This document shows, piece by piece, positions 8,085 to 29,982 of a stretch of DNA of 30,514 bases. The notes under the pieces were generated by a model that saw only the letters and a program-made list of their open reading frames with translations, was not told the origin of the DNA and did no database searches. The stretch spans positions 1 through 30,514 of the forward strand of contig CAZECW010000094.1 in assembly GCA_964510585.1 (NCBI GenBank), written 5' to 3'. The translations under genes were made by a program, and so were the position numbers. This DNA comes from an uncultured archaeon. Lineage in GTDB: Archaea > Asgardarchaeota > Jordiarchaeia > Jordiarchaeales > Jordiarchaeaceae. Within the stretch, counting starts at the first letter, position 1, and the number at the start of each line of letters is the position of its first letter.

Positions 8085-9239
8085 TCATCTAGTTATTTCC
8101 TTGGGTATGGGGGTTATTTCTTTTTTGAAGAGTTTATTTCTGAGCCATAAGGAAATGTTTACCATGTTTATGAGTACTGGGACTTCTAGTAGGGGTCCTA
8201 TGACTGCTGCGAATGCTTGACCTGAAGCTATGCCGAAGACTCCTATTGTTACCGCTATTGCCAATTCGAAGTTGTTACTGGCGGCTGTAAAGGCTATGGT
8301 TGCTGTATTCTCGTAGCTGAATCCTAGACGCCAAGACATCACATAGGATATTAGGAACATTATGACGAAGTATAGAACTAGTGGAATTGCGATTCTCAGA
8401 ACATCGTAGGGGAGGGAAATTATTTTTCCGCCTTGAAGCGAAAACATCATTATAACCGTGAAGAGTAGACCTATTAGAGCAGTTGGGGCCAGCTTCTTAA
8501 CAAAGTAGCCATCATACCACTCTTTTCCTCTTCTCCTTATCAGGCTGTATCTGGTTATCATACCGGCAAATAGAGGTATGCCCAAGTATATTATGACACC
8601 TTTAGCTATGTCAATAATTGACACGTTTACCACTGCGGCCCCCGTAAGGCTCAGTATCCAAGAGGGTACCCCAAGGATTCCCAGAATCCAGCTATATTCC
8701 GCAAACCATGTCGGTGTTCCAGTGAGCAACGAAGGAAGGAAGGTGATATATATGTAAGCTAGTATGGAGTACATTATCATCTGGAAAACCGAGTTTAGAG
8801 CAACTAAAACTGCGCAGAGTTCACTGTCCCCTTTTGCGAGCTGGTTCCAAACAAGTACCATAGCAATGCAGCGAGCCAGCCCAACAATTATGAGCCCCAT
8901 ACGGTACTCGGGCATGTCGGGTAAGAAAACCCACGCTAATGCAAACATTAGCGCTGGGCCAATTATCCAGTTTTGAACAAGGGATAACGCGAAGGCTCTC
9001 TTGGCTCCAAAGAGTCTTGAGAGTTCCTCGTATTTTACTCTGGCTAGTGGTGGATACATCATCCATATGAGTCCTATAGCGATGGGTAGGGAGACGGTGT
9101 CGAGCCTTAGTTCATTAAGAATTCCAGAAACCTCGGGAACCGTGGCGCCTAGTAAAACTCCGATAGCCATTGCCAGAAAAATCCACAGTGTTAGAAATCT
9201 GTCCAGAAGAGAGAGCTTTTGAGTACTTTGATTTGACAT
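8085..9239 (-). CDS. acr3: ACR3-family arsenite efflux transporter
   Basis: [55 protein letters not shown] and GPLLEVPVL motifs. Confidence 0.96.
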
Positions 9240-9304: not shown

Positions 9305-9324
9305 ATATCGATAAATGCAAATAT
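9305..9324. promoter_or_regulatory. Putative ArsR-type operator (copy upstream of acr3 / divergent arsR)
   Basis: ATATCG-ATAAATGC-AAATAT. Confidence 0.55.
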
Positions 9325-9512
9325 GGGGAGATTGTTGTATATTGCTAAACTAGTGCTTGAGCCGAACGCATTCAAACAAACACTCTTAATGAGAATCTTT
9401 TTATTTCTAAGCAAACACCAAGCGATTTTAATTAAGGACATTTTACGGTAGGTTTAAGTGTATTTAAGATTATCGTTTCATATTGATATTTATAGATTTA
9501 GGATGTGAATCG

Positions 9513-9893
9513 ATGGAACGTTTAGCACGCCTAATCGAGGAGGATGAGTGCTCGGCAAAGTGTGAAGAATACGCTGATGAACTAAAAAAATTAATGGTAG
9601 AGATGGATAAAACCCCGTTATGCAAGTTTGGATCTCTACTTTTTAAAGCCCTAGCGGATCGTAATCGTCTAAGAATTTTGAAGATGCTGGCTGTTAGAGA
9701 GATGTGTGTTTGCGAATTAAATGTGGCATTAGACATTTCTCAGGGAACAATATCGCACCATCTGAAAATCCTCCAAGAAGCCAAATTAATAAAGGGAAGA
9801 GTGAAAGGTAAATGGAACTATTACCGACTCAGCAGTAAACAAGTTGATAAATTCATAAAAATCAGCGAACAACTCATAAAGGAATTATACTAA
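9513..9893 (+). CDS. arsR: ArsR/SmtB-family metalloregulator
   Basis: FKALADRNRLRIL, EMCVCEL (alpha3 CxC) and SQGTISHHLKIL motifs. Extra N-terminal Cys (ECSAKC, PLC). ATG 9513 is preferred over the ORF-track start at 9483. Confidence 0.93.
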   Translation: MERLARLIEEDECSAKCEEYADELKKLMVEMDKTPLCKFGSLLFKALADRNRLRILKMLAVREMCVCELNVALDISQGTISHHLKILQEAKLIKGRVKGKWNYYRLSSKQVDKFIKISEQLIKELY

Positions 9894-10212: not shown

Positions 10213-11250
10213 TTATTTAATTTTGTCCATTTCTTCTTTGATGCTTTCTAGAATTTGTTCTTGGGAGGGTGTGGTTTTTGTGAATTTTAGATTTCCATTG
10301 ATTATTAATGCGGGTATTAGAGAGTTTTTTCCTGCCTCTATTAATCCTTTTGAAACTGTGGTTCCTGGGGGGCGGGCTTCTCCTTTTCTCCAGATTCTGA
10401 GTTCTATTTTTTGTTCTTCTCCTGACTCCTCAATTGCTTTTTTAACGTTTTCCTCGATCTCTGAGCATGTTTCTGTTGGTGGGTTGTCTAAAAGTAGTTC
10501 GATTAACAGTTTTCCGTAGGCTAGGGGAGGGATTCCATAAAGCAACCATTTTTCTGTTGTGTACTTGGTTTCGAGAACTGTCTTGAGGAACTCTTTTTCC
10601 TGCGGCGTTAAGTCTCCTTTTACGAGTTTTACTTTGAAATCGTTAATTATTTTGATGCAGGTGTTCTTGATGAAATCCTCTCGGGATAAATTTTCCTTAT
10701 AACGGTTTTTTATGCTTGTAATTATTCTGGGAAGCAGATTTAACCTGTTTGGAACTGTGAAATTTGTATCAAGGTAAACGACTCCCTGAAAAACGAGTAC
10801 ATCATAGTACCAGAATTGGGCGGCTTGCGAAACAATTTTCCCATCTTCAACTAGATAAAAAGGATCCTCATACGTGCAGGGTATGCCGTAGGATCTGATG
10901 GCTCTTATTATGGGACTATAAATTGCCACATAAATTTCTCGGATATTCTTGGGCAAATCATAATTCTTTGTGTTGATAATGAAGGTGAATATTAGTGAGT
11001 TTTCATCGATGAAAAAGCTGGGACCGAAGGTGTGTCTCCTAGCAAGCTCAATTCCGTGCTTTTTGAGTGTGTCTATTTCCTCCTCTTCTAATGTGTCGTC
11101 GCCGATGCTTAATGTTGGTTTACAGCTCCAAAAATGGATGGTGCTTGGCGCTAGAGAGTTATGCACTTGGATCATGATTGTTTCATCCATTGCAAATCCT
11201 ACATGAGGGTTTAAATGCTCGTTAATTATTAGTCTAATTTCGTTAGCCAT
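10213..11250 (-). CDS. Degenerate lipoate-ligase (LplA/BPL fold) domain fused to C-terminal thioredoxin-like domain
   Basis: AMDETIM, TIHFWS and ARRHTFGP (vs RRxSGGG). KIVSQAAQ...FQG replaces RKISGNAQ...HGT. C-terminal IELL...PPTETCSEIE...IPALIING...PS. Confidence 0.8.
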   Translation of the reverse strand: MANEIRLIINEHLNPHVGFAMDETIMIQVHNSLAPSTIHFWSCKPTLSIGDDTLEEEEIDTLKKHGIELARRHTFGPSFFIDENSLIFTFIINTKNYDLPKNIREIYVAIYSPIIRAIRSYGIPCTYEDPFYLVEDGKIVSQAAQFWYYDVLVFQGVVYLDTNFTVPNRLNLLPRIITSIKNRYKENLSREDFIKNTCIKIINDFKVKLVKGDLTPQEKEFLKTVLETKYTTEKWLLYGIPPLAYGKLLIELLLDNPPTETCSEIEENVKKAIEESGEEQKIELRIWRKGEARPPGTTVSKGLIEAGKNSLIPALIINGNLKFTKTTPSQEQILESIKEEMDKIK

Positions 11251-11271
11251 CTCTTGGCTCCCATCATGGTT

Positions 11272-11613
11272 TTATTTAGATAGGGATTCTATGTCCTTTG
11301 TGGTTTCTGATATTCTGCGTAGGTGTTCTAGTATCATTTCATCGATCAGTTTTAGAACGAGGAATATTCGTGGATCCTTAACCTTATACTCCACTTTTTG
11401 CCCAATTTTTTTGTGCTCTAATATGTTGCAATTTTTTAGGATTTGAATGTGTTGGGAAACTGTAGATTGAGACTTGTAAACGTGGGGTAAAATATCGCAT
11501 TGACAGCACTCACCACTCCTCAGAAGATCCAGAATCTTCAACCTGGTTTCATCAGCCAAGGCTTTGAGCAGCTCAATCCTCTTCTTATACAGAAGCTCCT
11601 CCTTCTTCTCCAA
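11272..11613 (-). CDS. arsR: ArsR/SmtB-family metalloregulator (CCxC type)
   Basis: LKALADETRLKILDLLRSGECCQCDI and SQSTVSQHIQIL. Confidence 0.92.
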   Translation of the reverse strand: MEKKEELLYKKRIELLKALADETRLKILDLLRSGECCQCDILPHVYKSQSTVSQHIQILKNCNILEHKKIGQKVEYKVKDPRIFLVLKLIDEMILEHLRRISETTKDIESLSK

Positions 11614-11666
11614 ACCTGATCACATTGAGAATTCCTCATTTGAAATAATTCAAATAAGTTATCATA

Positions 11667-12263
11667 CTAAATTTGGATAACGTGAATCTTTTTTTCAAGC
11701 TCCGCAGATTTTTCACTATCCAAATAGGGACAAGCGCGGGGAGAGTTTTCACCAGTTGCTAGCTTTATGGCAAATCCGTAACATGTGGAAACCCCACACT
11801 CCCCACAATCCTTTTTGGGCAAAAATTTGTTGATTTCAATTGGGCTGAGCTTGGTTTTGCTACTCATCAACTCCGGAGATATCTTCCCGTGGCGATTCAC
11901 ATAAATAGAAGCTCGATTTAAAAGATCCTTAACGTATCTCAGGATACTTTCGGCTTCTTCCCTATCTTTAAGATTTGTAACAGTTATTTTCCCAGCACCA
12001 AAAATTGTGATTAGATGCTCCTGAAACATGAAGCTCATGGACTCCGACTGCCTATTATATGTGGCCTGGGGAAGGTAAAGGTAAATGGCGGGAAGCAAAT
12101 CATCCAGATTTTCACTAGTGGTTCCCACAACTCTTATCCTCTCGGAGCTTGTCAAACAGGGAAGAACTTCAGATATTTTAATCTCCTTCACTCTGGGAGG
12201 AATAAGTAGATTAATAAGGGAAGACCCCTTTTGCCCATCATCAACCATAATCATATCCTCCAT
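11667..12263 (-). CDS. Fe-S-binding protein (COG4871-like; C-terminal putative Fe-S domain)
   Basis: N-terminal LPCLTSSERIRV...HLITIFGAGKITV and C-terminal LPKKDCGECGVSTCYGFAIKL...CPYL. ATG 12263 follows the SD AGGTG. Confidence 0.8.
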   Translation of the reverse strand: MEDMIMVDDGQKGSSLINLLIPPRVKEIKISEVLPCLTSSERIRVVGTTSENLDDLLPAIYLYLPQATYNRQSESMSFMFQEHLITIFGAGKITVTNLKDREEAESILRYVKDLLNRASIYVNRHGKISPELMSSKTKLSPIEINKFLPKKDCGECGVSTCYGFAIKLATGENSPRACPYLDSEKSAELEKKIHVIQI

Positions 12264-12366
12264 TAACACAAACACCTAAACATCACATTAGTTTCTACCC
12301 GCATTTCTAACAAGTTAAAAGACCATCAACTCCTACTGCATTGAACATAGAAAAAAATGCATTTAA

Positions 12367-12386
12367 ATATTGCTATATGATAATAT
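12367..12386. promoter_or_regulatory. Putative ArsR-type operator
   Basis: ATATTG-CTATATGA-TAATAT adjacent to TTTAAAT, upstream of the Fe-S/ArsR/ligase-like unit. Confidence 0.5.
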
Positions 12387-12565
12387 ACTAATATAACGCC
12401 GAAGCCTAAAAAACAACCGAAAACAAACAAAAATTGAACCAGCAAAACAAAACGCCAAAAAGAAAATCCTTGGAGGTATAGGATTTTGCAAATCTTAATC
12501 ATTCACTCGATAGTATCTGGATATTAAGCGCCTACGGGCATAAGAATTTCTAGTTTCAGACTTAA

Positions 12566-12844
12566 CTAATTAGTAACATTCTTTGATTCTAGTATGGATT
12601 CCAGTATTGCCTCCTCCAAGGTTTCTGGCTGGACATTTTTGATAAACTTTTTGGTTCCATTTATCACAATGCCTACATCTTTAATATTGTACTTCCTTGC
12701 TTCCTCAGAAAGAGAGGATTTTAAAATGAATTCGATGTGGTCTCTGTATTTTAGGGAAGTGCTCCACACGCGATCTAGAAATTCTGAATAGTAGCAGCCG
12801 CACAACTCTATGGGAACAAAAATTTCTAATTTGATTTTTGACAT
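12566..12844 (-). CDS. Small thioredoxin-fold-like protein with CxC motif
   Basis: KIKLEIFVPIELCGCYYSEFLDRV...GIVINGTKKF. Clear paralog of 28749..29009. Confidence 0.75.
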   Translation of the reverse strand: MSKIKLEIFVPIELCGCYYSEFLDRVWSTSLKYRDHIEFILKSSLSEEARKYNIKDVGIVINGTKKFIKNVQPETLEEAILESILESKNVTN

Positions 12845-17529: not shown

Positions 17530-17631
17530 GTAAAAGAAACATAAATAACCAAAAAACATCGGCAAGTTCTTGTAAGAACACTTGAAAAAAGTTAAATACA
17601 TGTATATGTGTATTTAATTTTGGTGGTATCA

Positions 17632-17880
17632 TTGGGACATAAGACCATTACAATTTCCGAGGAGGCATATAATTCACTAGCTGCGCTTAAACGTGAGAAT
17701 GAAAGTTTCACAGAGGTAATCCTCAGAGTAGTTTCCGAACTAAACAGGAAGCCGCTAACTTGGTTCGCGGGGAAATGGATTGGCGATAAATCAGAGCTTG
17801 ATGAGATTCTTAGGGTAATTCGCAGCGCCTGGACTGAGTATGAGGCAGAGCTAGGTGAGAGGAAAAATGGTTTGTTTTGA
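17632..17880 (+). CDS. vapB: VapB-type antitoxin (DUF217/COG1753-like)
   Basis: KTITISEEAYNSLAALKRENESFTEVILR...FAGKW. TTG 17632 is preferred as start. Confidence 0.88.
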   Translation: MGHKTITISEEAYNSLAALKRENESFTEVILRVVSELNRKPLTWFAGKWIGDKSELDEILRVIRSAWTEYEAELGERKNGLF

Positions 17881-18262
17881 TACTGATTTTATGGTGGCTT
17901 TACTCAAGGGACAGAGTGAAGCTATAAAAAAGGCGGAAGAGATAGAGAGTAGGGGAGAGAGGAAGACAACAACACCCATAGGCGCGTTTGAACTGTTCCT
18001 CGGTGCGAATCTTTCCAAGCATCAATTACAGAACATTAAATTAGTAAATAACTTCCTGCGAAACTTGGAGATTCTGAACTTTGATTTGGCAGCAGCAGAG
18101 AGAGCCGGAAAGATAGAAGCAGAACTCAGAAGATCAGGGAAGCCTATCGGGGTCAGAGACTCTATAGTTGCAGGAATAGCACTAAGACACGAACAAAAAA
18201 TTATCACAAAAAATGTTAAGCATTTTAGTCAAATTAGCGGCCTTTCTTATGAATCTTGGTAA
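17867..18262 (+). CDS. vapC: PIN-domain (VapC) ribonuclease toxin
   Basis: MVCFDTDF, GAFELFLG, IGVRDSIVAGIAL and ITKNVKHF motifs. Confidence 0.92.
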   Translation: MVCFDTDFMVALLKGQSEAIKKAEEIESRGERKTTTPIGAFELFLGANLSKHQLQNIKLVNNFLRNLEILNFDLAAAERAGKIEAELRRSGKPIGVRDSIVAGIALRHEQKIITKNVKHFSQISGLSYESW

Positions 18263-18389: not shown

Positions 18390-18961
18390 ATGAAGGCAAC
18401 CGTAATTCTGGGCTCACCGAGGAAAAACGGTAATACCTTTTTTGTTAAATAAAACCCTTAATCCACTTAGCAAAGAGCTGGATGCCGAAACATTATTCCT
18501 AGAGGACTATTATTGGGCTATGTACCTCGTGCCTTTCTTGTAAGGAAACCGGCCAATGTTCCATAAAAGATGATATGCGAACAATTTATAGAAAGCTATT
18601 TGAAGCTAATGCTATCATTCTTGCAAACCCTTCACATTTTGGCAGCGTCACAGCTCAGATGAAGACATTTATGGACAGAACATGGCCCTTGAGAAACGGA
18701 AGACTAAAAGACAAGATAGGGGGATCCATCGTCGTGGGAAGAAGATACGCCGAAAACACCCTAGTTACGCTCAACACATTTCTCCTAAGATATGGAGCAA
18801 TAATTGGACGCAGGGGAGTCCTAGGATACGCCTTTGAAAAAAGAGAGATCACCAGAGATCTAGAGGCGATCAAGACGATGCGCGAGCTTCGTGAGGGAAT
18901 GCTTGAACTCATTAAAAATTTTGACAGAAAAGGTAACGGTTTCAAAGAGTGTGAGAAGTAG
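18390..18961 (+). pseudogene. Iron-sulfur flavoprotein / NADPH-dependent FMN reductase family, frameshifted twice
   Basis: ATG 18390 gives MKATVILGSPRKNGNT. A shift at the T6 run (about 18440) and a second at about 18510 lead into IGLCTSCLSCKETGQC (CxxCxxCx5C)...DDM...ANPSHFGSVTAQMKTFMDR. Confidence 0.8.
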
Positions 18962-19151: not shown

Positions 19152-20144
19152 ATGGATCCTTTAGTTCTACTGGTGATAATACTGATCTTTGTTGGGATAG
19201 TGGTAGGATTCGCTAATGGTTTCTTTGGAGTCGGTGGCTGTTTTCTAATGGTTCCCTTCATGCATTTTCTCTTTGTCGGTATGGGTGTACCCGCAGACCT
19301 CGCTATAAAGCTAGCCTTCGGTACAAATATGCTGGTGGTTGCACCCACAGCATTCTTCGGAGCTTGGCGCTATCGAAGAGAGATAAAAGAGGCTTTCCCA
19401 ACAAGGAGAGCACTCATACTCACGCTTGGCGCGGCTATAGGTGGTGCTATAGGGAGCTCCTTTGCTCTTCTAACACCGGGTGAATTCTTGAAGATTATCT
19501 TTGGTGTCTTTTGTATTATTGGTGCCTATCGCTTTATGACTGCCAAGCCCAAGCCAATCCAGGTTCTTCCAGAGGCGTTTAGCAGGAAGCAATATTTCTT
19601 GTCAGGCGTTGCAGGTGGTGGAGTTGCACACTACCTGGGTATCGGTGGGGGTCTGGTTTACCTGCTAATTCTAAACTGGTATCTTTCAATCCCCATACAC
19701 CTTAGTGTGGCAGTGTCCCTCGCAACAATGACAGTTAGCTCCGGTGTGGGTGCCACAGTGTTTGGTGTACTGGGTTCACTGTTTCCGCATTCGTCCCTGA
19801 TTTTCATTGATGGGTTTTCCATTAATACAGCGTTAACCCTTTACATACTTTACAATTGGGGATTCACCTACGTGTACCAGCTCTACTACCTAAGCTATCT
19901 TGGGCTTATACCCAATTTCATAAACATGTTCCTCATGAGCCCGTTCCCGCCATTCACCATAGGTTACGTCAATCTCTTAGCATTTGTATCTCTAGCTGCG
20001 ACCAGTATTCCATTCTCAATGGTTGGAGCATGGGCCTCAGTAAGAGTTTCTCCTAGGAAGCTCAGCATACTATTGGCCATCACTTACATCTACGTTGGAT
20101 TGAAACTGATAGGGGTCTTTTCCTACCTTGGATTGCCCATCTAG
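19152..20144 (+). CDS. TauE/SafE (DUF81) sulfite-exporter family membrane protein
   Basis: GFANGFFGVGGCFLMVP, AFGTN, HYLGIGGG and GYVN motifs, with many transmembrane segments. Confidence 0.9.
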   Translation: MDPLVLLVIILIFVGIVVGFANGFFGVGGCFLMVPFMHFLFVGMGVPADLAIKLAFGTNMLVVAPTAFFGAWRYRREIKEAFPTRRALILTLGAAIGGAIGSSFALLTPGEFLKIIFGVFCIIGAYRFMTAKPKPIQVLPEAFSRKQYFLSGVAGGGVAHYLGIGGGLVYLLILNWYLSIPIHLSVAVSLATMTVSSGVGATVFGVLGSLFPHSSLIFIDGFSINTALTLYILYNWGFTYVYQLYYLSYLGLIPNFINMFLMSPFPPFTIGYVNLLAFVSLAATSIPFSMVGAWASVRVSPRKLSILLAITYIYVGLKLIGVFSYLGLPI

Positions 20145-20267: not shown

Positions 20268-20750
20268 TTATGTTACCTTTTTTGTTACTGGGGCTTTTTT
20301 ACATACGCTGTTTTTTGGGGAAACTATTTGTTTCTCGTAGAGTTCATCCACCTTTTTTGCGATTTCTTCTGCGATTTTGTACGCTAATTCGTAACCAGCC
20401 TCGCCGAGGTCTTCTCGGGATTTGGGAACCAAAGCAGGGTATTTTTTCATTATTTCCTTTACTCTAATGGTTGCTGCTACAGGGCCGCTGTAGTTTTCCA
20501 CAGCAGTTCTGGCACATTCTTCTTCGCACCCTTCAATTGTGATTGTTGGGTGGGTCTTTGCAAATTCCCTTTCTTGGTTTCTACCTTTTCTTTCTAGTCC
20601 TCCAGCCATGAATAGGGGTTGACATAGGATTACAGTTTTTTCAGGTCGTAACTTTTCAAAAGCTATTATTGCAGCAACTCGGGATAAGGTGCCTTCAACC
20701 AAGTCTTCGCCACTGCAGGCAATGAGCCCAATTTTCTGTCTTATAGGCAA
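20268..20750 (-). CDS. DGC-domain putative zinc-binding protein (type B)
   Basis: IACSGEDLVEGT, ILCQP and IEGCEEECA (Cys4). TTG 20750 follows the SD GGTGA (the ORF track starts at 20786). Confidence 0.85.
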   Translation of the reverse strand: MPIRQKIGLIACSGEDLVEGTLSRVAAIIAFEKLRPEKTVILCQPLFMAGGLERKGRNQEREFAKTHPTITIEGCEEECARTAVENYSGPVAATIRVKEIMKKYPALVPKSREDLGEAGYELAYKIAEEIAKKVDELYEKQIVSPKNSVCKKAPVTKKVT

Positions 20751-20751
20751 G

Positions 20752-21171
20752 TTAATCACCGTTTCTTTTTTCTTCAAGTAACTCATTTATTTTTTGGTAG
20801 ATTTTTTCTGCAAGTTTGCGGGATAGTTTTTTTGCATTTTCTCCTAGTGGATAAACACTTCTTTCTGGTTTCAATTCACGATTTTCTTTTAATACATCTG
20901 TTGACAGGAATTGAGCATCAATTTTTCCCACAGCTTCTGAAACATCATTATACGAACACTTTAGAGAACACCCGTCAATCACAATAACTTTGTTTGATTT
21001 TAGTTTATCAATAACTTCTTTTTTCCCCTTAACAATTAGTGGGAGACATTCTGTGTCCGCCTTGCCTTTAGCTAGTTCGTTTACCACGATGTATGCTGCT
21101 TCTCTGCCTATACTGCCATAGACTTTACCTATTCCACTGCAGGGAAGCAGGTAAACTATTTCTTTTGTCAA
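20752..21171 (-). CDS. DGC-domain putative zinc-binding protein (type A)
   Basis: LPCSGIGKVYG, ECLP and IDGCSLKCS. Confidence 0.88.
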   Translation of the reverse strand: MTKEIVYLLPCSGIGKVYGSIGREAAYIVVNELAKGKADTECLPLIVKGKKEVIDKLKSNKVIVIDGCSLKCSYNDVSEAVGKIDAQFLSTDVLKENRELKPERSVYPLGENAKKLSRKLAEKIYQKINELLEEKRNGD

Positions 21172-21173
21172 GC

Positions 21174-22055
21174 TCAGTCGCCTATGTTTTGTGCTCTGTG
21201 TTTTCGTTCTTCTTCTATTTTCTTTTTCATATACTCAAAATAGGCTGGACCGTCCATTAATAATTCTTTATCCTCTTCAAAGTTTTTCAGTTCTACTTCT
21301 ACGAACCATCCCTTCCCATAGGGATCTTGATTTAATAGTTCGGGTGATTTTTCTAGTTCCTTGTTCACCGCGACGACTTTGCCTGAAGCGGGAGTAATCA
21401 GTTGGAGGACAATTTTTATGGATTCAAAGCTTCCTATGTCGTCAAACTGTTCAAATTCCAAACCGATTTCGGGAAATTCCACAAAAATTATGTCGCTTGC
21501 CATGTTTTGGAGGAAATCAGAGATGCCCATAAGCGCCTTTTTACCCATGGGTTTTACCCAGCAATCATTTTCATTAAAATAGTAGCCAGACTTTGGAACT
21601 CTGAAACGGAACTTATCTACGGTGGTTTCAAAATATTCGATTTCTTCCAGCTCCCTAATCTCAGCAACCTCACCTTCTGATTCCTTTAAACTTTCAAGAA
21701 TTTCGGACGCTATGAATTCGGCTAATTTTTGCCCCTCCTCATCCAAAATGAGAGATTTTCCGGGGTTCAACTTGTACTTTTTAACCATGTCGGGCGTAAA
21801 AATTTTTTTACCGGGCCTTAATGATCTTTCATCAAGTAGCTTAGTTGCGCAGCGAGTCATACATCCATCAATCACAATTATATCAGATTCCTTCAAGAGT
21901 TCTTCGTATTTTTCATCTCCCGTATTCAGGAGAACGGGGCATATCAGCTCGATGTCAGGATTCTTTTCTATTAATTTCAATGCCACGTTTCTAGCAACAA
22001 CACCCAAAGACTTATCAAGCCCATTGCAGGGCAAAACACAAACCTTCTTACCCAT
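21174..22055 (-). CDS. DGC-domain / glycine-cleavage-H (lipoyl carrier) fusion protein
   Basis: N-terminal LPCNG, ICP and IDGCMTRCA. C-terminal GISDF..DIIFVEFP..GSFESIK (lipoyl Lys, codon 21414-21416)..PASGKVVAVN..PELLNQDPYGKGW. Confidence 0.9.
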   Translation of the reverse strand: MGKKVCVLPCNGLDKSLGVVARNVALKLIEKNPDIELICPVLLNTGDEKYEELLKESDIIVIDGCMTRCATKLLDERSLRPGKKIFTPDMVKKYKLNPGKSLILDEEGQKLAEFIASEILESLKESEGEVAEIRELEEIEYFETTVDKFRFRVPKSGYYFNENDCWVKPMGKKALMGISDFLQNMASDIIFVEFPEIGLEFEQFDDIGSFESIKIVLQLITPASGKVVAVNKELEKSPELLNQDPYGKGWFVEVELKNFEEDKELLMDGPAYFEYMKKKIEEERKHRAQNIGD

Positions 22056-22068
22056 GAGAAATTCACCT

Positions 22069-22371
22069 CTACTCGCTTTCCTTCCTTAATTCTTTGATTA
22101 GCTTGGTAATCTCTCTTTTGTCGGGAAATGATAGTGCGTCCACAGCGCAGGTTTTGGCGCAAGCCCTACAAAAAACTACACAGTTGTATGGGTTTTTTAC
22201 TATCAGTTTCTTTTCCTCATTTTCTCTCCGCTCGTAAACGTTGTGGGGACAAAACTTGTCGCACTCCATACAGAAATTGCACTTGCTGTAGTCGATTGTG
22301 GGGAACCAGGGAATTTTCTTTCTGGGAACGCCCATAAAGGTTTCCTGTTCCGCATCGTACTCTTTACTCAT
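22069..22371 (-). CDS. 2x[4Fe-4S] ferredoxin-like protein
   Basis: CNFCMECDKFCP and CVVFCRACAKTC, with an N-terminal FMGVPRKKIPWFPTIDY extension. Confidence 0.9.
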   Translation of the reverse strand: MSKEYDAEQETFMGVPRKKIPWFPTIDYSKCNFCMECDKFCPHNVYERRENEEKKLIVKNPYNCVVFCRACAKTCAVDALSFPDKREITKLIKELRKESE

Positions 22372-22762
22372 TCTTTTCTTCCTCCTCCTCTTTCTTTTCT
22401 TGGTATTCTTCTAGGGTTTTTTCAACTAGTTCTACAGCTTGGTCTGTTGTCATTTCTCTTATGTCGAGGGGTATGAGGTCTTTTTTTACATCTAGACCCG
22501 CTTTTTCGAAAGAGTCACGAAACAGTTTATATTGCATGTTGGGAGCGCAACCCGCTATGAGGTATTTTCGTCCGGGACGCAGAAAATCTTCAAGGAAGCG
22601 GTCACCATCTTCTTCGCAAAGCTGTGGATGAATAAACGCATATTCTACGGGTAGTTCTACACGTACCCGGTTAATAAAGTCCCAAATATCCATTTTTGCA
22701 AATCCTGGACATTTACCGGTGCATACGCACATTATAACGCCGATGTCTTTTTCTTCACTCAT
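22364..22762 (-). CDS. Stand-alone HdrA N-terminal-domain-like protein
   Basis: IGVIMCVC, QLCEEDG, IAGCAPNM..LFR and DIRE mirror the HdrA N-terminus (IGVYxCHC, MCSDPG, VAACSP..FR, NIRE). ATG 22762 is preferred; the ORF-track extension runs through the promoter. Confidence 0.7.
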   Translation of the reverse strand: MSEEKDIGVIMCVCTGKCPGFAKMDIWDFINRVRVELPVEYAFIHPQLCEEDGDRFLEDFLRPGRKYLIAGCAPNMQYKLFRDSFEKAGLDVKKDLIPLDIREMTTDQAVELVEKTLEEYQEKKEEEEEKNE

Positions 22763-22880: not shown

Positions 22881-22900
22881 ATATCGATTAATGGCAATAT
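22881..22900. promoter_or_regulatory. Putative ArsR-type operator
   Basis: ATATCG-ATTAATGG-CAATAT in the divergent intergenic region. Confidence 0.65.
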
Positions 22901-23066: not shown

Positions 23067-23095
23067 ATATTGTCATAAAACGATAAGTTTAAATA
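23067..23095 (+). promoter_or_regulatory. Putative ArsR-type operator plus TATA box
   Basis: ATATTG-TCATAAAA-CGATAA (23067-23086) immediately before TTTAAATA (23088-23095). Confidence 0.6.
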
Positions 23096-23275: not shown

Positions 23276-23692
23276 TTGACTAAAAAGGTTGTAGTGCTAC
23301 CCTGCAGCGGCGTTGGAAAAGTTTACGGAACAATTTCACGTGAAGCAGCCTACAAAGCAGTCGAAGAACTTAAACTAGGAAAAACATCAATCACCTGTCT
23401 ACCACTACTAGTGGTGGGAGACGATGACGCCGAAAAGCTGGTTCAGGAGAATCCCTGTATCGTCATAAATGGTTGTCCATCAGGCTGCGCGACCTTAGCA
23501 ACTGAGAAGGCTGGAGGAAAGATAGTTCAGATAATTGACGTTACCAAAGTGCTCAAGGAGAACAGAGATTTAAAACCTAACCAGATGGCCATAAGAGAAC
23601 TTGACCCGAAGGGGAAAAAGTTAGCTGAGATAATAGCGGAAAAGATCAGTCAAGAGGTAGATAGAATATTAGACTCAGAGGAAGGAGGTTGA
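23276..23692 (+). CDS. DGC-domain putative zinc-binding protein (type A)
   Basis: LPCSGVGKVYG, TCLP and INGCPSGCA. Paralog of 20752..21171. Confidence 0.88.
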   Translation: MTKKVVVLPCSGVGKVYGTISREAAYKAVEELKLGKTSITCLPLLVVGDDDAEKLVQENPCIVINGCPSGCATLATEKAGGKIVQIIDVTKVLKENRDLKPNQMAIRELDPKGKKLAEIIAEKISQEVDRILDSEEGG

Positions 23693-23696
23693 AACA

Positions 23697-24122
23697 TTGT
23701 TTATTCCAATGGTAGGAGTGGTTCCCTGTAGTGGCGAGGAAATACCTGAAGGGACTGTTGCGAGAATTGCTGCACGCATTGTTTTGGAGAAGTTGAGACC
23801 CACCAAAACCATGACCATCTGCTTGCCTCTATATCTTGCTGGAGGAAAAGATGAGCAGGAGTTTGTCAGGAGGCAACCCACAATTGTCATAGATGGCTGC
23901 GGCAAGGGATGCGCTGAAAAAAGTATAAGAAAAAATGGGGGAAACATAGCCGCAGTAATCAGGGTTCCCGAAATAATGAATGGATGTAAACTTAGGGCAA
24001 AGACCAGGGCCAAGCTGGATGAAGAAGGCGAAAAACTGGCTGAGATAGTAGCAGAAAAAATCGCAGAGGAGGTAGACAGAGTACTCCAAGAAATGAAAAA
24101 GAAAAGCGAACAAGGAGGATAA
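23697..24122 (+). CDS. DGC-domain putative zinc-binding protein (type B)
   Basis: VPCSGEEIPEGT, ICLP and IDGCGKGCA. Paralog of 20268..20750. Confidence 0.88.
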   Translation: MFIPMVGVVPCSGEEIPEGTVARIAARIVLEKLRPTKTMTICLPLYLAGGKDEQEFVRRQPTIVIDGCGKGCAEKSIRKNGGNIAAVIRVPEIMNGCKLRAKTRAKLDEEGEKLAEIVAEKIAEEVDRVLQEMKKKSEQGG

Positions 24123-24253: not shown

Positions 24254-24661
24254 ATGGAAGGAAAAGAAGGTAAGACTGTTATCTATGCTTGTTTTGGTGG
24301 TTTTTCCAATACCGGCATTACTACTGCTTTAGCCAGCATGGATGCGGTAAAAGAGGTTGGACTAGACAAGGTATGTATAGGTTGCTTGGGTGGATTGCCA
24401 ATAAACGTAAGACCTGTTTATGAAAACACTGATAAAGCGAAGAAAATTATTACCGTTGACGGTTGCCCGATGGAATGTTCAAGGAAAACAGTGGAGAATG
24501 CAGGATACAAGATAGCTAAAAGCATTGTACTAGCAAGAGACATCGGAATGAAGAAAAAGTCACTATATGAAGGAAATGAGAAAAACCTGACAGACAACAT
24601 TAATGGGGAAGATGTCAGAAAAGCAAAAGAGCTAATTGTCAAAGCAATACTAGAGGATTAA
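24254..24661 (+). CDS. DGC-domain putative zinc-binding protein (type C)
   Basis: YACFGGFSNTG, IGCLGG and VDGCPMECS. Confidence 0.88.
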   Translation: MEGKEGKTVIYACFGGFSNTGITTALASMDAVKEVGLDKVCIGCLGGLPINVRPVYENTDKAKKIITVDGCPMECSRKTVENAGYKIAKSIVLARDIGMKKKSLYEGNEKNLTDNINGEDVRKAKELIVKAILED

Positions 24662-24987: not shown

Positions 24988-25440
24988 CTAGTCACTTAGT
25001 TTATCGACTGCTTCTGTAGGTGTTAAAGCTTGAATGTTGAGATAGTCTTTGAAGTCTGCGGGGTTCCAGGTTACCAAAACCTCGGAGTAGGCTTCTGCGT
25101 GGGAGGCTATAAGGAAGTCTGGTAAAATTCTTTTTCTCGCTCCTGGCCGTTGAAGAAGGTACTGGGAAAACATTTGCCCAGCTCTCTTTGCGACCTCCAA
25201 GGAACCACCAAGGTGAACTAATATATTGTTTACCGCAAGGAATTTTTGAACATTATACTCTTCTTCCTCCGGATTCCCACTGAGAAATATTCCCGCATAT
25301 AGTTCTGCATACACAACTCCAGAAATTATCAGACTCAGTTTTTTATCTCTAGCCCATCTGAAAAATTTGAGTGTCTCGTGAAAGAATTCGTCGGCTTTGA
25401 GATGGCTAATTATAACACTTGTATCAAGTGAAACTCTCAA
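24988..25440 (-). CDS. vapC: PIN-domain (VapC) toxin
   Basis: LDTSVII, VYAEL, ILPDFLIASHA and LVTWNPADF motifs. Confidence 0.92.
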   Translation of the reverse strand: MRVSLDTSVIISHLKADEFFHETLKFFRWARDKKLSLIISGVVYAELYAGIFLSGNPEEEEYNVQKFLAVNNILVHLGGSLEVAKRAGQMFSQYLLQRPGARKRILPDFLIASHAEAYSEVLVTWNPADFKDYLNIQALTPTEAVDKLSD

Positions 25441-25442
25441 CC

Positions 25443-25700
25443 CTAATCCTCTTCTTCGGCTTTGCCTCTAAGCCATCGTACAATTTCTACTGAGTTTTTC
25501 ATTTTTCCAAAGATAGGATGGTTGTTCCAGACCCCTGCAGTTTCCGCCATGACTTTCTCCCACTCTCCGCCAACCTTCTCTATAATTATTTTGCCGTCTA
25601 CATATCGGACATCGACAATGTCTCCTATGGTTAGCCCTACTTTCTCCCTAATCTCTTGAGGAATTGTTACCTGAAAGCGACGCGTGACCTTTACAAACAA
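25443..25700 (-). CDS. AbrB/MazE/SpoVT-family antitoxin
   Basis: VKVTRRFQVTIPQEIREKVGLTIGDIVDV...GKIIIEK. Confidence 0.9.
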   Translation of the reverse strand: MFVKVTRRFQVTIPQEIREKVGLTIGDIVDVRYVDGKIIIEKVGGEWEKVMAETAGVWNNHPIFGKMKNSVEIVRWLRGKAEEED

Positions 25701-25803: not shown

Positions 25804-26859
25804 TTATGGGAGAATTGTTTTTGCTTGCATTATTGCTACTATGAGGTCTGTTGGTTTTATTCCAGGTGTAATAATATTTTGTTTATAAAAATCTTCGACT
25901 ATTTGTTTTATGTTTTGATAGTTGTATGGTTTGTCTTTTAGCATTTTTTCGAGTTGTTTTAGTGCCTGTGGAGGGGTTATGAAGAAGTCTCCGCTTATGT
26001 TTATTTCTTTAATATTGTTGTTGGATATGTTTAGTGAGACGCGTATTAGTCCTCCGGGTGCCTTGTACACGGTTTCGTGTTCAAACTCGAGGCTGCTTCC
26101 AAAAATCCACTCGGGGGAGCTATACTTTTTTTGGAGTTCCCGGGCCATTTCGAGTTCTTCTGGTGTGAGTTTCGAGTCCTGGAACTCGACGCCAAGAGCT
26201 TCTTGGTATCCCCTGCGAACCGCGTTTTTCACAATACTCACGGGAATTGTTGTCCCCAGCTCCCTTTTTATTGTTGTCACTCTATCTCTTACTGAGGATG
26301 CATTCTTGTCCCTGAGTTTTTCGGTGGACACTCTCAGAGCATTTTCTAAATTTTCAAAGTTTAGATCTATGAGGAGTGTTCCGTGATGGATGAGAACATT
26401 ATGGAGTTGGTGCTGAGCGTTTCCAGAAATTTTTCTTTTACCAATAACAATATCATTTACGGGCTTAAACTCTGCCTCCAGTCCCAATAATTTAAGGGCG
26501 ATAATTAAACCTCTACAGAGATACGAGTATGATTCTATGGGGTCTTTGAAGGATCTGAACTTGTTAGTGTCTATGTAGAGTGAGTAGTTTAGGTTTCCCG
26601 AATCCTGGTACACTGCCCCGCCCCCCGATAGTCTTCTAACTATTTTTATTCCCTTCTGTTTACAGTAGTCTACATTCACTTCTTTCTCTACCCGCTGGTT
26701 GCACCCTACACTTACGATTAGGGGGTGTTGCCACACTCTGAGAGCGTTTGGAGAATTTTTTTCCAGTATGCTTCTGGCCATGGTTTCTTCTATTGCTAGG
26801 TTCATGTATGGGTCATCTGAACTATAGTCGATAAAGCGCCAGGACTCCTTCAAAGTCAC
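25804..26859 (-). CDS. lplA: Lipoate-protein ligase A (with C-terminal adenylation-assisting domain)
   Basis: YMNLAIEE, VRRLSGGGAVYQDSGNLNYS, VNDI, RKISGNAQ, HHGTLL and C-terminal YKAPGGLIRV...ISGDFF. Confidence 0.93.
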   Translation of the reverse strand: MTLKESWRFIDYSSDDPYMNLAIEETMARSILEKNSPNALRVWQHPLIVSVGCNQRVEKEVNVDYCKQKGIKIVRRLSGGGAVYQDSGNLNYSLYIDTNKFRSFKDPIESYSYLCRGLIIALKLLGLEAEFKPVNDIVIGKRKISGNAQHQLHNVLIHHGTLLIDLNFENLENALRVSTEKLRDKNASSVRDRVTTIKRELGTTIPVSIVKNAVRRGYQEALGVEFQDSKLTPEELEMARELQKKYSSPEWIFGSSLEFEHETVYKAPGGLIRVSLNISNNNIKEINISGDFFITPPQALKQLEKMLKDKPYNYQNIKQIVEDFYKQNIITPGIKPTDLIVAIMQAKTILP

Positions 26860-26867
26860 CCCGCCCC

Positions 26868-27902
26868 TTACTTTATTCTTTTAATCTCTTCCCTTACAAT
26901 ATTTGAAAACTCTTCAGGGGTGGGAACAGTTCTTCCATATTTTAGTTCGCCGTTTACTATCACTGCAGGAATCTGGGACTTTTTAGCAGCTTCTATTAAC
27001 CCGTTTGTAACAGTGACACCGGGAGGTAGACCTCTCCCCCTTCTCCATATCCTTAACTCAATTTCTTCTTCGTTCCCAGACATTTTTATTCCCTCCTTCA
27101 CATTTTTTTCTATCTGGGAACACATTTTAGTGGGGGGAGAAGCAGTCAAAACCTCTATGAGAAGTTTACCATAAGCTAGAGGTGGAGAAAACTCCAAATT
27201 CCACCTTGGAGACTGATACTTAGTTTTCAAAACCCGTTCAAAAGTTTTATTCTCTAAATCTGTCAAGCTTCCCTCAATAAGGGTGGCTCCAAATTTTTCC
27301 CTTATTCTACTTGAGGCTTCCTCTATAAACTCTCTAACAGTTTTTTTGCTTGATGAGAGCCGTGTTAGACTGGATACCTTTTTGGGGAGGATACCCGCAG
27401 AGTTGGCAAAATCCACGTCGACATCCAAGTAAACGACGCCCTGAAAAACTAATATATCATAGTACCAAAACTGTGAAACTTGAGAGGTTACCACATCATC
27501 TACGAATAGGTAAGATGTATTATCAAAGGCACATTTTACGCCAAAATTTTCTATTGTTTCGATTATTGGAGAGTAAACCAGCCGGTACAAATCATTTAAC
27601 TCTCTTGGAAAAAGAGGATCACGTGTATCAAGGATGAAGCCAAATAGTAATGAACCTTCATCAGCGTAGAATGTTGGTCCATCAGTAACCCTCCTAATAA
27701 TTCGGACGTTTTTCTCTTTGAGGAAACTCATCTGGTCTTGGTTCAACCGCAGGTTTCCTAAAACTATGGAGGGAGGGCTTCTCCAAAAATGTACTGTGTT
27801 GGGTGCATCTCCACCCTTGACGTGGAGCATGATGGTTTCATCTAAAGCCCACCCCAAGCTTGGCTCAACAAGGTCTTGGATAAAAATTCTTAGTTCCTTA
27901 AT
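26868..27902 (-). CDS. Degenerate lipoate-ligase domain fused to C-terminal thioredoxin-like domain (paralog of 10213..11250)
   Basis: ALDETIM, TVHFWR, IRRVTDGP and VVTSQVSQ..FQG (no catalytic Lys), with PPTKMCSQIE...IPAVIVNG..PT. ATT 27902 (SD GGAGGT, 1 nt after the upstream stop) fits the paralog alignment. The alternative ATGs at 27953/27977 overlap the upstream gene. Confidence 0.8.
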   Translation of the reverse strand: MKELRIFIQDLVEPSLGWALDETIMLHVKGGDAPNTVHFWRSPPSIVLGNLRLNQDQMSFLKEKNVRIIRRVTDGPTFYADEGSLLFGFILDTRDPLFPRELNDLYRLVYSPIIETIENFGVKCAFDNTSYLFVDDVVTSQVSQFWYYDILVFQGVVYLDVDVDFANSAGILPKKVSSLTRLSSSKKTVREFIEEASSRIREKFGATLIEGSLTDLENKTFERVLKTKYQSPRWNLEFSPPLAYGKLLIEVLTASPPTKMCSQIEKNVKEGIKMSGNEEEIELRIWRRGRGLPPGVTVTNGLIEAAKKSQIPAVIVNGELKYGRTVPTPEEFSNIVREEIKRIK

Positions 27903-27903
27903 T

Positions 27904-28599
27904 TTAGTGACCTCCCTTATAATATACACATTTATCCTTTTTACATTCTTCATTGTTGGAAGAAAAGGGACACCCATCGAAATTTGAGGGTAATTTGATT
28001 TGAAAATTTTTTTCTAAAAAGTCTACGGCGCTTTTTAACGAGGCATAAACGCTGGCTTTGCAGCATCTTGGACCTCCCAACTTTGAGATAGAGAGTAGTG
28101 ATTCACCACTGGCATCCAAAGACTGCGTCCTTTCAGTGTCAGACTTGTAAGTTGCTCCCGTTAGAACGCTCATGGCAATTCCAACACCTGCCCCAGCTCC
28201 GCAAATCCCCCAGGATCCGCAAGTACCATAAGGTATCATTTTCCCCCTCTTAATGGCAATTCTAATTGCTCTGGATGGCAATTCGTGCCCTACATTTTTT
28301 ATTGTGGTTAATAGTACAGCGGGAACAAGGTAGTGATGGATGGGAGAATGCATGGGTATTGCGGGATGCTTCATTATTAGGTTAGCTAGTTCGTATGGGT
28401 TTTTTATTTCACTTCTCTCACAGGTTTTTAAAACTAATTCTTCTGGGAGAGCTAGTCTACAGTTCTCGCACACAAAGTGGTGGTCATCGCAAGTATAGTC
28501 TGCAACTGAAACCTCCTTACAATATATGCACCTTAGCTCTTCAGAAGTTGGGTGAAGAACTTTATTGCAAATATTGCAGTAGAAAACCTCGTTTTCCAA
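27904..28599 (-). CDS. DUF5714-like Cys-rich protein with N-terminal zinc-finger-like domain
   Basis: CNIC, CIYC, C..HHFVCENC, HSPIHHYLVPAVLL, GTCGSWGICGAG, GGPRCCK and CPFS..N.EC....C motifs. Confidence 0.75.
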   Translation of the reverse strand: MENEVFYCNICNKVLHPTSEELRCIYCKEVSVADYTCDDHHFVCENCRLALPEELVLKTCERSEIKNPYELANLIMKHPAIPMHSPIHHYLVPAVLLTTIKNVGHELPSRAIRIAIKRGKMIPYGTCGSWGICGAGAGVGIAMSVLTGATYKSDTERTQSLDASGESLLSISKLGGPRCCKASVYASLKSAVDFLEKNFQIKLPSNFDGCPFSSNNEECKKDKCVYYKGGH

Positions 28600-28748
28600 G
28601 AACAGCCCTCAACCGGTATGAATAATTTGTTGCCTTCTCCGAGTTACGGACTTGCTGGTTCATTGATGTGCTTCCACCCGTGAAGCAACCTGCAAAAGTC
28701 GCAGTCGAGTATTTTTTGAAAAAACATATAAAGGAGGAGGTTTGTGGC

Positions 28749-29009
28749 TCATGCTTTTAGAGCATTTTCTATTGCTTTTTCTAGGCTTTCTGGCTTAAAA
28801 AACTCTGGAAACACTTCGCTGCCGTTTACCACCAGCCCCTTACTGCCGATTTTGAATTTCCTAGCCTCATCTGAGAAAGAAGGCTTTACATCAAATTCCA
28901 CTTGGTCTCGGTACTTTGTCAGTACTGCAAATACGCGGTCCATGAATGCTGAGAATTGGCAGGCGCATGAACCCATAGGGATGAAAATATCTACTTTAAC
29001 TTTTGACAT
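28749..29009 (-). CDS. Small thioredoxin-fold-like protein with CxC motif
   Basis: KVKVDIFIPMGSCACQFSAFMDRV...GLVVNG. SD GGAGG. Confidence 0.78.
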   Translation of the reverse strand: MSKVKVDIFIPMGSCACQFSAFMDRVFAVLTKYRDQVEFDVKPSFSDEARKFKIGSKGLVVNGSEVFPEFFKPESLEKAIENALKA

Positions 29010-29136
29010 GGAATCATTCCTCCTATTTCTAGTCTTGTTCTGTTTTATTCACCTTTTTATTTTTGATTAAACTTGTGGTTTGACGCCCATTAACATGGTT
29101 TTCCTTGTATAGTATTAGTGTCGACGGCTTTTAAAT

Positions 29137-29156
29137 ATATCGACGTATAACAATAT
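29137..29156. promoter_or_regulatory. Putative ArsR-type operator
   Basis: ATATCG-ACGTATAA-CAATAT overlapping TTTAAATA, upstream of the CxC/DUF5714/ligase unit. Confidence 0.65.
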
Positions 29157-29225: not shown

Positions 29226-29588
29226 TTAGAAAATGATTATGGCTTCGCCCTGTTTTAGAATTATTTTTACCAACTCTTCTTCTTCAATGGGAGTGATGCC
29301 TTTTATTATTCTTGCTTCAGGTATTCTTCTTTCCTGAAGAGATTTTTTGTGAACATATAATTCGGACTCGGGAAGAAGTGTATAGATTAAATCTTCCACG
29401 CTGGGCATAGATATTTTCTCTGGGTTTTGATTTGAAATTGTGGCATATACTCCATCGCCCATAAATAATATTGTGCATTTAAGCCCGCTGTTGAGGCATG
29501 CTACGGCTACATATAGTCCACTGAAACAGTCTTCAAAACCGTAGGGCGCTTTTGTGATGATTAGCAGTACCGTGTTAATTTTAATCAC
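29226..29588 (-). CDS. DsrE/DsrF-like family protein (DsrF/TusC-like)
   Basis: LLIITKAPYG, LFMGDGVY and LYVHKKSLQERRI motifs. Confidence 0.85.
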   Translation of the reverse strand: MIKINTVLLIITKAPYGFEDCFSGLYVAVACLNSGLKCTILFMGDGVYATISNQNPEKISMPSVEDLIYTLLPESELYVHKKSLQERRIPEARIIKGITPIEEEELVKIILKQGEAIIIF

Positions 29589-29592
29589 CTTC

Positions 29593-29976: not shown

Positions 29977-29982
29977 AATCAC

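Follow-up and report, generated by a model that had tools for sequence, protein, structure and literature searches.

The lipoyl arm allows its carrier to visit several active sites, and lipoic acid is known to us in only a handful of enzyme systems. Among these are thiol relays: the Lpd-SucB(DlaT)-AhpD-AhpC chain of M. tuberculosis, the lipoyl-dependent Ohr/OsmC proteins, and the L-protein/H-protein/OsmC relay of the Trichomonas hydrogenosome. Iron-sulfur (Fe-S) mediated reduction of disulfides by one-electron donors is the business of ferredoxin:thioredoxin reductase (FTR) and heterodisulfide reductase (Hdr). The DGC domain is widespread, and we know of no biochemical function for it. The subject of this analysis is a gene that joins a DGC domain to a lipoyl carrier resembling GcvH, the H protein of glycine cleavage. 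It lies at positions 21174-22055, on the reverse strand, of a 30,514-nucleotide stretch of DNA from an uncultured archaeon of the Jordiarchaeaceae (Asgardarchaeota; contig CAZECW010000094.1 of assembly GCA_964510585.1), which at its full length is called the window. Our reading, to which we assign a probability of roughly 45%, is that the fusion protein is the lipoyl-carrier subunit of a five-gene ArsR-controlled cassette in the response of anaerobes to arsenic (as a thiophilic metalloid), operating by the mechanism proposed below. The cassette points to an undescribed lipoyl-dithiol step in the arsenic handling of anaerobes.

AnvM (PA3880) of P. aeruginosa is the only DGC protein that has been studied. 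It has been reported to regulate anaerobic virulence genes, shows an oxidant phenotype and has the most oxidation-sensitive cysteine of that proteome; its authors, who recovered it from inclusion bodies, detected no significant Zn, Cu or Fe (PMC6650552). Binding of zinc (or another metal) by DGC cysteines stands as a database prediction only. According to a preprint, a predicted ArsR5-ArsP-ArsE ars operon of Pseudodesulfovibrio mercurii includes a DGC gene; the preprint also reports that an operon containing homologues of ArsE and ArsP changes its expression with arsenic (bioRxiv 10.1101/2022.10.17.512643). In the literature searched, only these two papers were relevant to a link between the DGC domain and lipoate or arsenic, and no published description of the DGC::GcvH fusion or of its cassette was found.

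The DGC::GcvH fusion

The open reading frame (ORF) starts with ATG and encodes a two-domain protein with the following parts (strand in brackets; basis of each assignment after the semicolon).

21174..22055 (-), DGC::GcvH fusion gene, 293 aa; ORF, Pfam DGC and GCV_H, AF2 model, 96-member alignment
21678..22055 (-), DGC domain, aa 1-126, flavodoxin-like alpha/beta fold; AF2 domain model
21207..21605 (-), GcvH-like lipoyl-carrier domain, aa 151-283; superposition on 1dxm_A, phmmer, NCBIfam
21414..21416 (-), Lys214 codon, predicted lipoyl-lysine; E-S-x-K invariant in 96/96 fusions

A DGC domain, an acidic linker and a complete GcvH domain with its lysine in ESIK had been proposed from the letters alone (the sequence-only reading), and this architecture is borne out by the ORF, by Pfam and by an AlphaFold 2 (AF2) model. 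Pfam assigns residues 6-97 to DGC (PF08859; E 1.6e-17, 63.9 bits against a cut-off of 27) and residues 158-278 to GCV_H (PF01597; E 1.2e-31, 109.6 bits against a cut-off of 22.2). The linker between the domains is Glu-rich and acidic and about 25 residues long. Given 119 relatives as input, AF2 models the whole fusion with a mean predicted local distance difference test score (pLDDT) of 88.4 and each domain confidently; linker residues 127-133, with pLDDT below 50, are predicted to form a disordered stretch.

The modelled GcvH domain superposes on the pea H protein (1dxm_A) with Z 21.8 and a root-mean-square deviation of 1.1 A over 131 residues, and phmmer matches it to 1onl_A at E 7.9e-25. 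Residues E211-S212-I213-K214 would form the lipoyl hairpin. The fusion scores below both NCBIfam GcvH equivalogs (TIGR00527, 111.1 against a cut-off of 115.85; NF002270, 115.3 against 117). In canonical H proteins, those of pea and E. coli among them, the Glu of an H-E-W motif holds the loaded arm in its cavity; in the fusion, aligned with the T. thermophilus protein, Cys165 occupies this Glu/Gln position.

The DGC domain of the window protein has four cysteines: C10, C39, C65 (in D63-G64-C65) and C69. Modelled alone, the domain reaches a pLDDT of 94.8 and a predicted TM-score (pTM) of 0.89; in this model C10, C39 and C65 sit at the C-terminal ends of strands 1-3, and C69 opens the next helix. 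Clear structural kin are limited to DGC proteins, to AnvM/PA3880 (TM 0.73 against its AFDB model) and to 3pu6_A, an uncharacterised Wolinella protein that is the nearest solved chain (Z 10.2, VIA-align) and is followed in the same ranking by generic flavodoxin-like folds. The AFDB structural clusters that match the model are made up of DGC proteins only. A Foldseek search of the PDB with the DGC-only model gave nothing at E <= 0.001, and the DGC profile gave only a chance match among PDB sequences. Kinship with pI258 ArsC was considered and set aside: 1jf8_A aligns at Z 7.7, inside the flavodoxin-like background, and is not used as evidence.

A search of a 5.8-billion-protein collection with the fusion gave 993 matches, of which the best 120 are listed. 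Both Pfam domains are present in 118 of these 120 (the window's own two entries included), and the DGC annotation is missing in one. Names among the listed matches are those of Jord-, Loki-, Thor-, Heimdall- and Hermodarchaeota; the closest named relatives among them, 92% identical, belong to Candidatus Jordarchaeia / 'Freyarchaeota'. About 64 of 400 Asgard species genomes encode a full-length fusion, 35 of these proteins at 54-93% identity and the other 29, forming a divergent subfamily, at 31-39% (two of the latter come from single-contig genomes, of 4.36 and 6.04 Mb). In a scan of 185,579 species genomes, bacterial full-length fusions appear at 43-50% identity. Their hosts are six Acetobacterium species, Clostridium ljungdahlii, C. 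tepidiprofundi, Caloramator fervidus, Eubacterium limosum, E. callanderi (with two copies), Acididesulfobacillus and Desulfofundulus, together with metagenome-assembled genomes of Actinomycetota, Dehalococcoidales and Melainabacteria type.

Because it recurs so widely in Asgard archaea and bacteria, the fusion is no rare one-off, and the Rosetta-stone premise from which the sequence-only reading had argued is strengthened: hundreds of archaeal and bacterial proteins have the joined form, with its predicted lipoyl lysine and three of its cysteines invariant. K214, C65 and C69 are conserved in 96 of 96 aligned fusions and C10 in all 91 that have the N-terminus; K148, W166 and E211 are likewise invariant. 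The Cys4 site that had been proposed is present as such in the window protein, and family-wide it shrinks to the three invariant cysteines, C39 being kept in 81/96 fusions (and C165 of the GcvH domain in 83/96). The premise gains further from a Bathyarchaeota locus (L092), in which the two halves are adjacent separate genes (TGA stop, 4 nt, ATG, in the same frame), and from intact lipoate-ligase genes linked to the fusion in the window and in bacterial loci.

The cassette and its surroundings

The fusion is the third gene of a cassette, the other members of which are listed here with a divergently oriented operon.

22364..22762 (-), 5-Cys protein, 132 aa, cassette gene 1; start from alignment, 92 homologues, HdrA profile match
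22069..22371 (-), 2x[4Fe-4S] ferredoxin, 100 aa, cassette gene 2; Pfam Fer4 families, 94/95 loci
20752..21171 (-), stand-alone DGC protein, A type, cassette gene 4; Pfam DGC 9.2e-15
20268..20786 (-), stand-alone DGC protein, B type, cassette gene 5; Pfam DGC 2.5e-10
23276-23692, 23697-24122 and 24254-24661 (+), divergent operon of three further DGC proteins; Pfam DGC

The 5-Cys and ferredoxin genes overlap by 8 nt, 13 nt separate the ferredoxin gene from the fusion and 2 nt the fusion from the A-type DGC gene, and the two DGC genes overlap; this spacing fits one operon, in keeping with the co-transcription that the sequence-only reading had proposed. Neighbourhoods were counted over 95 loci, with flanks of 6-10 kb. 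In every locus read the order is 5-Cys protein (~125-135 aa), ferredoxin (~100 aa), fusion, A-type DGC, B-type DGC, and the A-type orthologue lies 3' of the fusion in all of them. The ferredoxin gene is present in 94 of the 95 loci, the 5-Cys gene in 89, and at least two further DGC genes in 92. The source genome (3.78 Mb, 96% complete) has six DGC domains, all inside this window. In four RNA-seq libraries, each from a different study, contigs with about 91% identity to the ERI-2 locus of C. ljungdahlii carry the full five-gene cassette unbroken, and one library has a 2,404-nt contig whose two ends coincide with the borders of the cassette. These contigs are a weak indication that the five bacterial genes are transcribed together. 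Contigs prove neither a single transcript nor its level; the RNA runs shared only 0.11 of sampled words with the ERI-2 locus, and contig depth was not used as an expression level.

The most conserved member of the cassette is the 5-Cys protein (90% identical between Jord- and Lokiarchaeota), with a C-x-C-x3-C...C...C motif, the five cysteines of which are invariant in 92 homologues. For this protein and for the small C-x-C proteins described below, Pfam and NCBIfam gave nothing significant, and the protein Atlas places the 132-aa protein in unnamed or 'HdrA-like' clusters only. Its profile matches the N-terminal domain of HdrA in three solved structures of heterodisulfide reductases (7bkb_A residues 6-93, E 4.2e-4; 9sfi_A, 0.012; 5odc_A, 0.076), so that the label HdrA-N-like, given before any search was made, was apt. 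C12, C14, C49 and C72 align with cysteines of HdrA, and C18 is extra. In HdrA structures the N-terminal domain binds a [4Fe-4S] cluster.

The arsenic-related features of the window lie on both sides of the cassette. A second unit (10213..12844) is listed gene by gene, and the palindromes, found by motif scan, are given without strand.

8085..9239 (-), ACR3 arsenite efflux transporter; TIGR00832, 429 bits, cut-off 282.8
9483..9893 (+), ArsR-family repressor with E-M-C-V-C-E-L box; family and motif
10213-11250 (-), LplA-like pseudo-ligase, second unit
11272-11613 (-), ArsR with E-C-C-Q-C-D box, second unit
11667-12275 (-), RnfB-type Fe-S protein, second unit
12566-12844 (-), C-x-C thioredoxin-like protein, second unit
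9305..9324, palindrome copy with 1 mismatch, between ACR3 and ArsR
22881..22900, palindrome ATATCG-N8-CAATAT, putative operator, ~120 bp upstream of the cassette
23067..23086, palindrome copy with 1 mismatch, upstream of the divergent DGC operon
29137..29156, perfect palindrome copy, upstream of the C-x-C/DUF5714/pseudo-ligase/LplA operon

By every testable criterion the cassette sits in an ars island. The ACR3 gene of the window is the sole ACR3 match in the source genome. An ArsR gene is found in 72/95 cassette loci, and in 74 of 75 loci the nearest ArsR has an E-x-C-x-C-D/E box; where it lies within 1.5 kb (55 loci) the box is never missing. ACR3 is in the flanks of 32/95 loci, and both ACR3 types that occur at cassette loci clear the TIGR00832 cut-off; in three loci (L025, L036, L037) ACR3 is directly upstream of the cassette on the same strand, and a Bacillota locus (L068) reads ArsR, ACR3, four DGC genes, 5-Cys, ferredoxin, fusion. 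Given 1-2 ACR3 genes per 3-4 Mb genome, we estimate roughly that chance adjacency would arise in well under 1% of cases. Small C-x-C thioredoxin-like proteins are encoded near the cassette in 32/95 loci, beside ArsR.

The palindrome ATATYG-N8-CRATAT is matched 8 times in the window, where 0.27 matches would be expected. Besides the four listed, there are copies at 12367, 13311 (upstream of a radical-SAM pair), 16952 and 25602, the last lying inside a VapB-like gene and perhaps there by chance. As judged from the motif, ACR3/ArsR, both DGC operons, the ligase operon, the radical-SAM pair and the 16952 site may form a single putative regulon.

General replacement of ArsC by the cassette was considered and rejected: 50 of the 64 cassette-bearing Asgard genomes have LMWPc, as against 294/400 overall. 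No LMWPc or ArsC/Spx match was found in the source genome (96% complete), and Jordarchaeaceae likewise are without these.

Several other genes accompany the island. A radical SAM/SPASM protein (13722-14930(+); AhbD/NirJ-like, below all cut-offs) is encoded 13 nt before a B12-binding radical SAM protein (14944-16335(+)), and a SPASM gene also lies between ACR3 and the cassette in a related complete genome (L020). The Fe-S protein of the second unit (11667-12275(-), 202 aa) combines an RnfB/CdhD-type 'FeS' domain (PF04060) with an N-terminal part that weakly resembles TBP; its homologues are near the cassette in 21/95 loci, including those of Acetobacterium, Eubacterium and C. ljungdahlii. In many Lokiarchaeial loci (L006:4519-5250, L027, L028, L030, L033, L038) a DUF166 (PF02593) gene lies 3' of the B-type DGC gene, and the same loci have a divergent upstream trio of ArsR, a 92-aa C-x-C thioredoxin-like protein and a 158-aa DGC protein. 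Two toxin-antitoxin-like pairs, judged by eye from translations, interrupt the island of the window: a small antitoxin-like protein with a PIN-like protein (17608-18262(+)) and an AbrB/SpoVT-like with a PIN-like protein (24988-25700(-)). A 128-aa ORF at 18575-18961(+) matches only positions 62-139 of FMN_red and resembles an N-terminally truncated NADPH-dependent FMN reductase.

The putative means of charging the carrier with lipoate are encoded on the other side of the divergent DGC operon.

25804..26859 (-), intact LplA; TIGR00545, 283.3 bits, cut-off 280; catalytic Lys and RRxSGGGAVY kept
26868..27977 (-), LplA-like pseudo-ligase with Val at the catalytic Lys and a thioredoxin-like, Cys-bearing C-terminal part; sequence
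27904..28599 (-), DUF5714 Cys-rich protein, MbdU-like; Pfam 9.5e-57, NCBIfam MbdU 1e-39, below cut-off
28749..29009 (-), C-x-C thioredoxin-like protein, 86 aa, first gene of the ligase operon; paralogue of 12566-12844

The intact LplA is the top of 17 LplA-like matches in the genome (202.5 bits) and is encoded 3.7 kb from the fusion under the same putative palindrome operator. In at least seven bacterial loci (L083, L090, L094, L098, L108, L112, L115) LplA is directly downstream of the cassette, and the DUF5714 gene adjoins the cassette in Heimdall- and Bathy-labelled loci. The products of 26868-27977 and 10213-11250 are classed as pseudo-ligases because Val or Ile stands in for the catalytic Lys, the nucleotide motif is degenerate and the Cys-bearing C-terminus is thioredoxin-like; both are without RRxxGGG, and the thioredoxin-like part, with conserved P-P-T-x-x-C and P-P-G motifs, replaces the LplA C-terminal domain. 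In the absence of any E2-type lipoyl domain among the matches in the source genome, the lipoyl acceptors of this organism would be its five H-like proteins.

Pseudo-ligase-like proteins accompany the cassette in two other loci (L023 and L037). The presence of 17 LplA-B_cat matches in a 3.8-Mb genome with five GcvH-like acceptors is an unexplained expansion; most are low-scoring ORFs of ~370-400 aa that resemble the window's pseudo-ligases (for example C173:67120-67728, C193:52054-52623 and C96:1218-1772). One further locus of the genome (L002, G000:C193:51483-53065) encodes a second GcvH-like paralogue of 148 aa, with an E-T-G-K lysine motif and Cys in N-D-H-C-W, directly followed by its own 364-aa LplA: a carrier-ligase pair outside glycine cleavage. 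The 108-aa ORF at 28744-29070(+), antisense to the real 86-aa gene at 28749-29009(-), is probably spurious.

A proposed relay and its rivals

In the mechanism that we propose, the neighbouring LplA would lipoylate Lys214 of the fusion. The 2x[4Fe-4S] ferredoxin would pass electrons to the HdrA-N-terminal-like protein, with its presumed [4Fe-4S] site and its fifth invariant cysteine, Cys18, and this protein would reduce the lipoyl disulfide in a manner akin to FTR, or to Hdr, working with one-electron donors. Electron input from a low-potential ferredoxin is suggested by the two dedicated Fe-S proteins of the cassette. The dihydrolipoyl arm, on its flexible acidic linker, might then swing to the conserved cysteines, C10/C65/C69 and in some cases C39, both in its own DGC domain and in the two DGC proteins encoded alongside it, delivering its dithiol to their cysteine sites. 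These sites would act on arsenic species or on arsenic-damaged thiols, and As(III) would leave by way of ACR3. In the last step an As(V) species might be reduced, As(III) might be released or handed off, or arsenic-blocked thiols might be repaired. The sequence-only reading had allowed electrons, sulfur or As(III) as cargo; the context (ArsR, ACR3, ferredoxin, HdrA-N-like protein) favours electrons and/or As(III), and speaks less for sulfur.

A lipoyl-carrier thiol relay inside ars operons has a real chance of being a new enzyme system. In a more specific form, which we advance tentatively and would not bet on, the cassette is a new arsenic enzyme system of Asgard archaea and anaerobic bacteria: a lipoamide reductase that depends on Fe-S proteins and is driven by ferredoxin charges the tethered arm, and the arm serves three-Cys DGC sites. 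Equally tentative is the corresponding role of the DGC sites, which would transform or carry arsenate, thioarsenate or an organoarsenical, or else hand As(III) to ACR3.

Several observations weigh against an arsenic-handling lipoyl carrier. The divergent Asgard subfamily has lost C39 and C165, and the sampled flanks of about two thirds of the loci are without ACR3. The inducer could be another soft metal, since repressors of the ArsR/SmtB family with a C-x-C box also include Cd/Pb sensors. LMWPc coexists with the cassette, which therefore is no simple ArsC replacement. The pTM of the whole-fusion AF2 model is only 0.55, giving domains without a fixed mutual arrangement; together with the disordered stretch of the linker, this suggests two rigid domains with no fixed relative position. 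The arm may contact its own DGC domain, but its target could just as well be the Fe-S protein or the two DGC proteins encoded with it.

The main rival, which we consider unlikely, retains the arsenic context and dispenses with the electron relay: the reduced lipoyl dithiol, possibly with Cys165 of the arm-docking cavity supplying a third sulfur, would trap As(III) and pass it by way of the three-Cys DGC sites to ACR3, as ArsD does for ArsA, the ferredoxin and the Fe-S protein merely keeping thiols reduced. Dihydrolipoyl groups are a classic target of arsenite, and the invariant C10/C65/C69 suit trigonal S3 binding of As(III). The replacement of the H-E-W cavity Glu/Gln by Cys165 in most fusions, the adjacency or co-operonic position of ACR3 in several loci, and the small C-x-C thioredoxin-fold proteins near a third of the cassettes (32/95) also fit such a carrier. 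On the other hand, a stoichiometric carrier has no obvious need for two dedicated Fe-S proteins, which are conserved better than the DGC proteins; one subfamily does without C165 and C39; and we know of no chaperone for ACR3.

Less probable still is an arsenic-induced lipoyl defence against thiol damage and peroxide, in which the arm would reduce DGC proteins acting as peroxidase- or disulfide-reductase-like enzymes, by analogy with the Lpd-SucB-AhpD-AhpC, Ohr/OsmC and Trichomonas H-protein/OsmC relays. The hyper-reactive cysteine of AnvM and its oxidant phenotype (PMC6650552) are what recommend it; no peroxidase-type family was found in the cassette or its conserved flanks, and the regulators have a metalloid C-x-C box and are not of the peroxide-sensor type.

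We think it quite improbable that the arm moves persulfide between DsrE-type proteins and DGC sites in a sulfane-sulfur relay of LbpA/sHdr type, with sulfite leaving through TauE. The window does have a DsrE/DsrE/DsrH trio at the island edge (29226-30324(-), TusBCD/DsrEFH-type) and, at 19152-20144, an exporter of the TauE family; a few further loci (L028, L039) have DsrE-like genes close to the cassette, and LbpA systems likewise have dedicated ligases (PMC10332631). These genes are rare, however, with DsrE in 3-4 and TauE in 2 of 79 loci; of 67 CCG/HdrB-type matches in the genome none is on the window's contig, none is labelled in the conserved flanks, and the conserved partners of the cassette are instead ArsR with an arsenic box and ACR3.

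That the fusion is an ordinary glycine-cleavage H protein with an extra zinc-binding domain, as its near-canonical GcvH score and the presence of GcvP and GcvT in the genome might suggest, is hardly credible, given a separate canonical GcvH on contig C72 (166.6 and 168.6 bits) among the five GcvH-like genes of the genome, GcvP and GcvT far from the window on contig C76, no gcvP or gcvT beside the fusion in any locus read, and a Cys in place of the cavity Glu.

Comparison with known systems

If the arsenic-handling relay is real, it adds a ferredoxin-powered lipoyl-dithiol step that is missing from textbooks and from reviews of ars operons; it would also be the first biochemical function for the DGC superfamily and a sixth type of lipoyl-dependent system. 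The cassette is strictly ordered and kept from Asgard archaea to acetogenic Clostridia, and since it occurs in the genetically tractable and non-pathogenic Acetobacterium woodii, Clostridium ljungdahlii and Eubacterium limosum, the question is open to direct testing.

AnvM shares with the DGC domain of the fusion its fold and the DGC motif with a reactive cysteine; it differs in standing alone, in having 11 cysteines and in having no lipoyl partner (PMC6650552). The 5-Cys protein, for which we propose a reaction like that of FTR or Hdr, is unrelated in sequence both to the catalytic subunit of FTR and to HdrB, its homology being to the HdrA N-terminal domain.

With the lipoyl thiol relays the proposed system would share a dihydrolipoyl arm as dithiol donor to a cysteine-based detoxifying protein, the donor in Trichomonas being an H protein as well. 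Those relays draw on NADH-dependent Lpd, whereas the candidate reductant in the cassette is the ferredoxin together with the 5-Cys Fe-S protein; the acceptors here would be DGC proteins, and the regulation is of arsenic type. No lipoyl system described so far is known to contain a DGC::GcvH fusion, DGC partners or a ferredoxin paired with an HdrA-N-like protein.

The LbpA carrier of the sHdr system (Cao et al. 2018; PMC10332631) is, like the fusion, a GcvH-like protein outside glycine cleavage, with its own ligase genes and Hdr-related Fe-S partners. The cassette differs in being without nearby HdrB/C or CCG genes, its partner having only an HdrA N-terminal-like domain, in the fusion of its carrier to a DGC domain, and in a context of ArsR and ACR3 instead of sulfur-oxidation genes.

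With the classical ars operons (ArsR-ACR3/ArsB-ArsC with thioredoxin or glutaredoxin; ArsD-ArsA) the locus shares a C-x-C ArsR, ACR3 and small thioredoxin-fold Cys proteins. Unlike these, most cassette genomes have their ArsC-type genes elsewhere, and unlike any ars operon that has been described, the cassette combines a lipoyl carrier, DGC proteins, a ferredoxin and an HdrA-like Fe-S protein.

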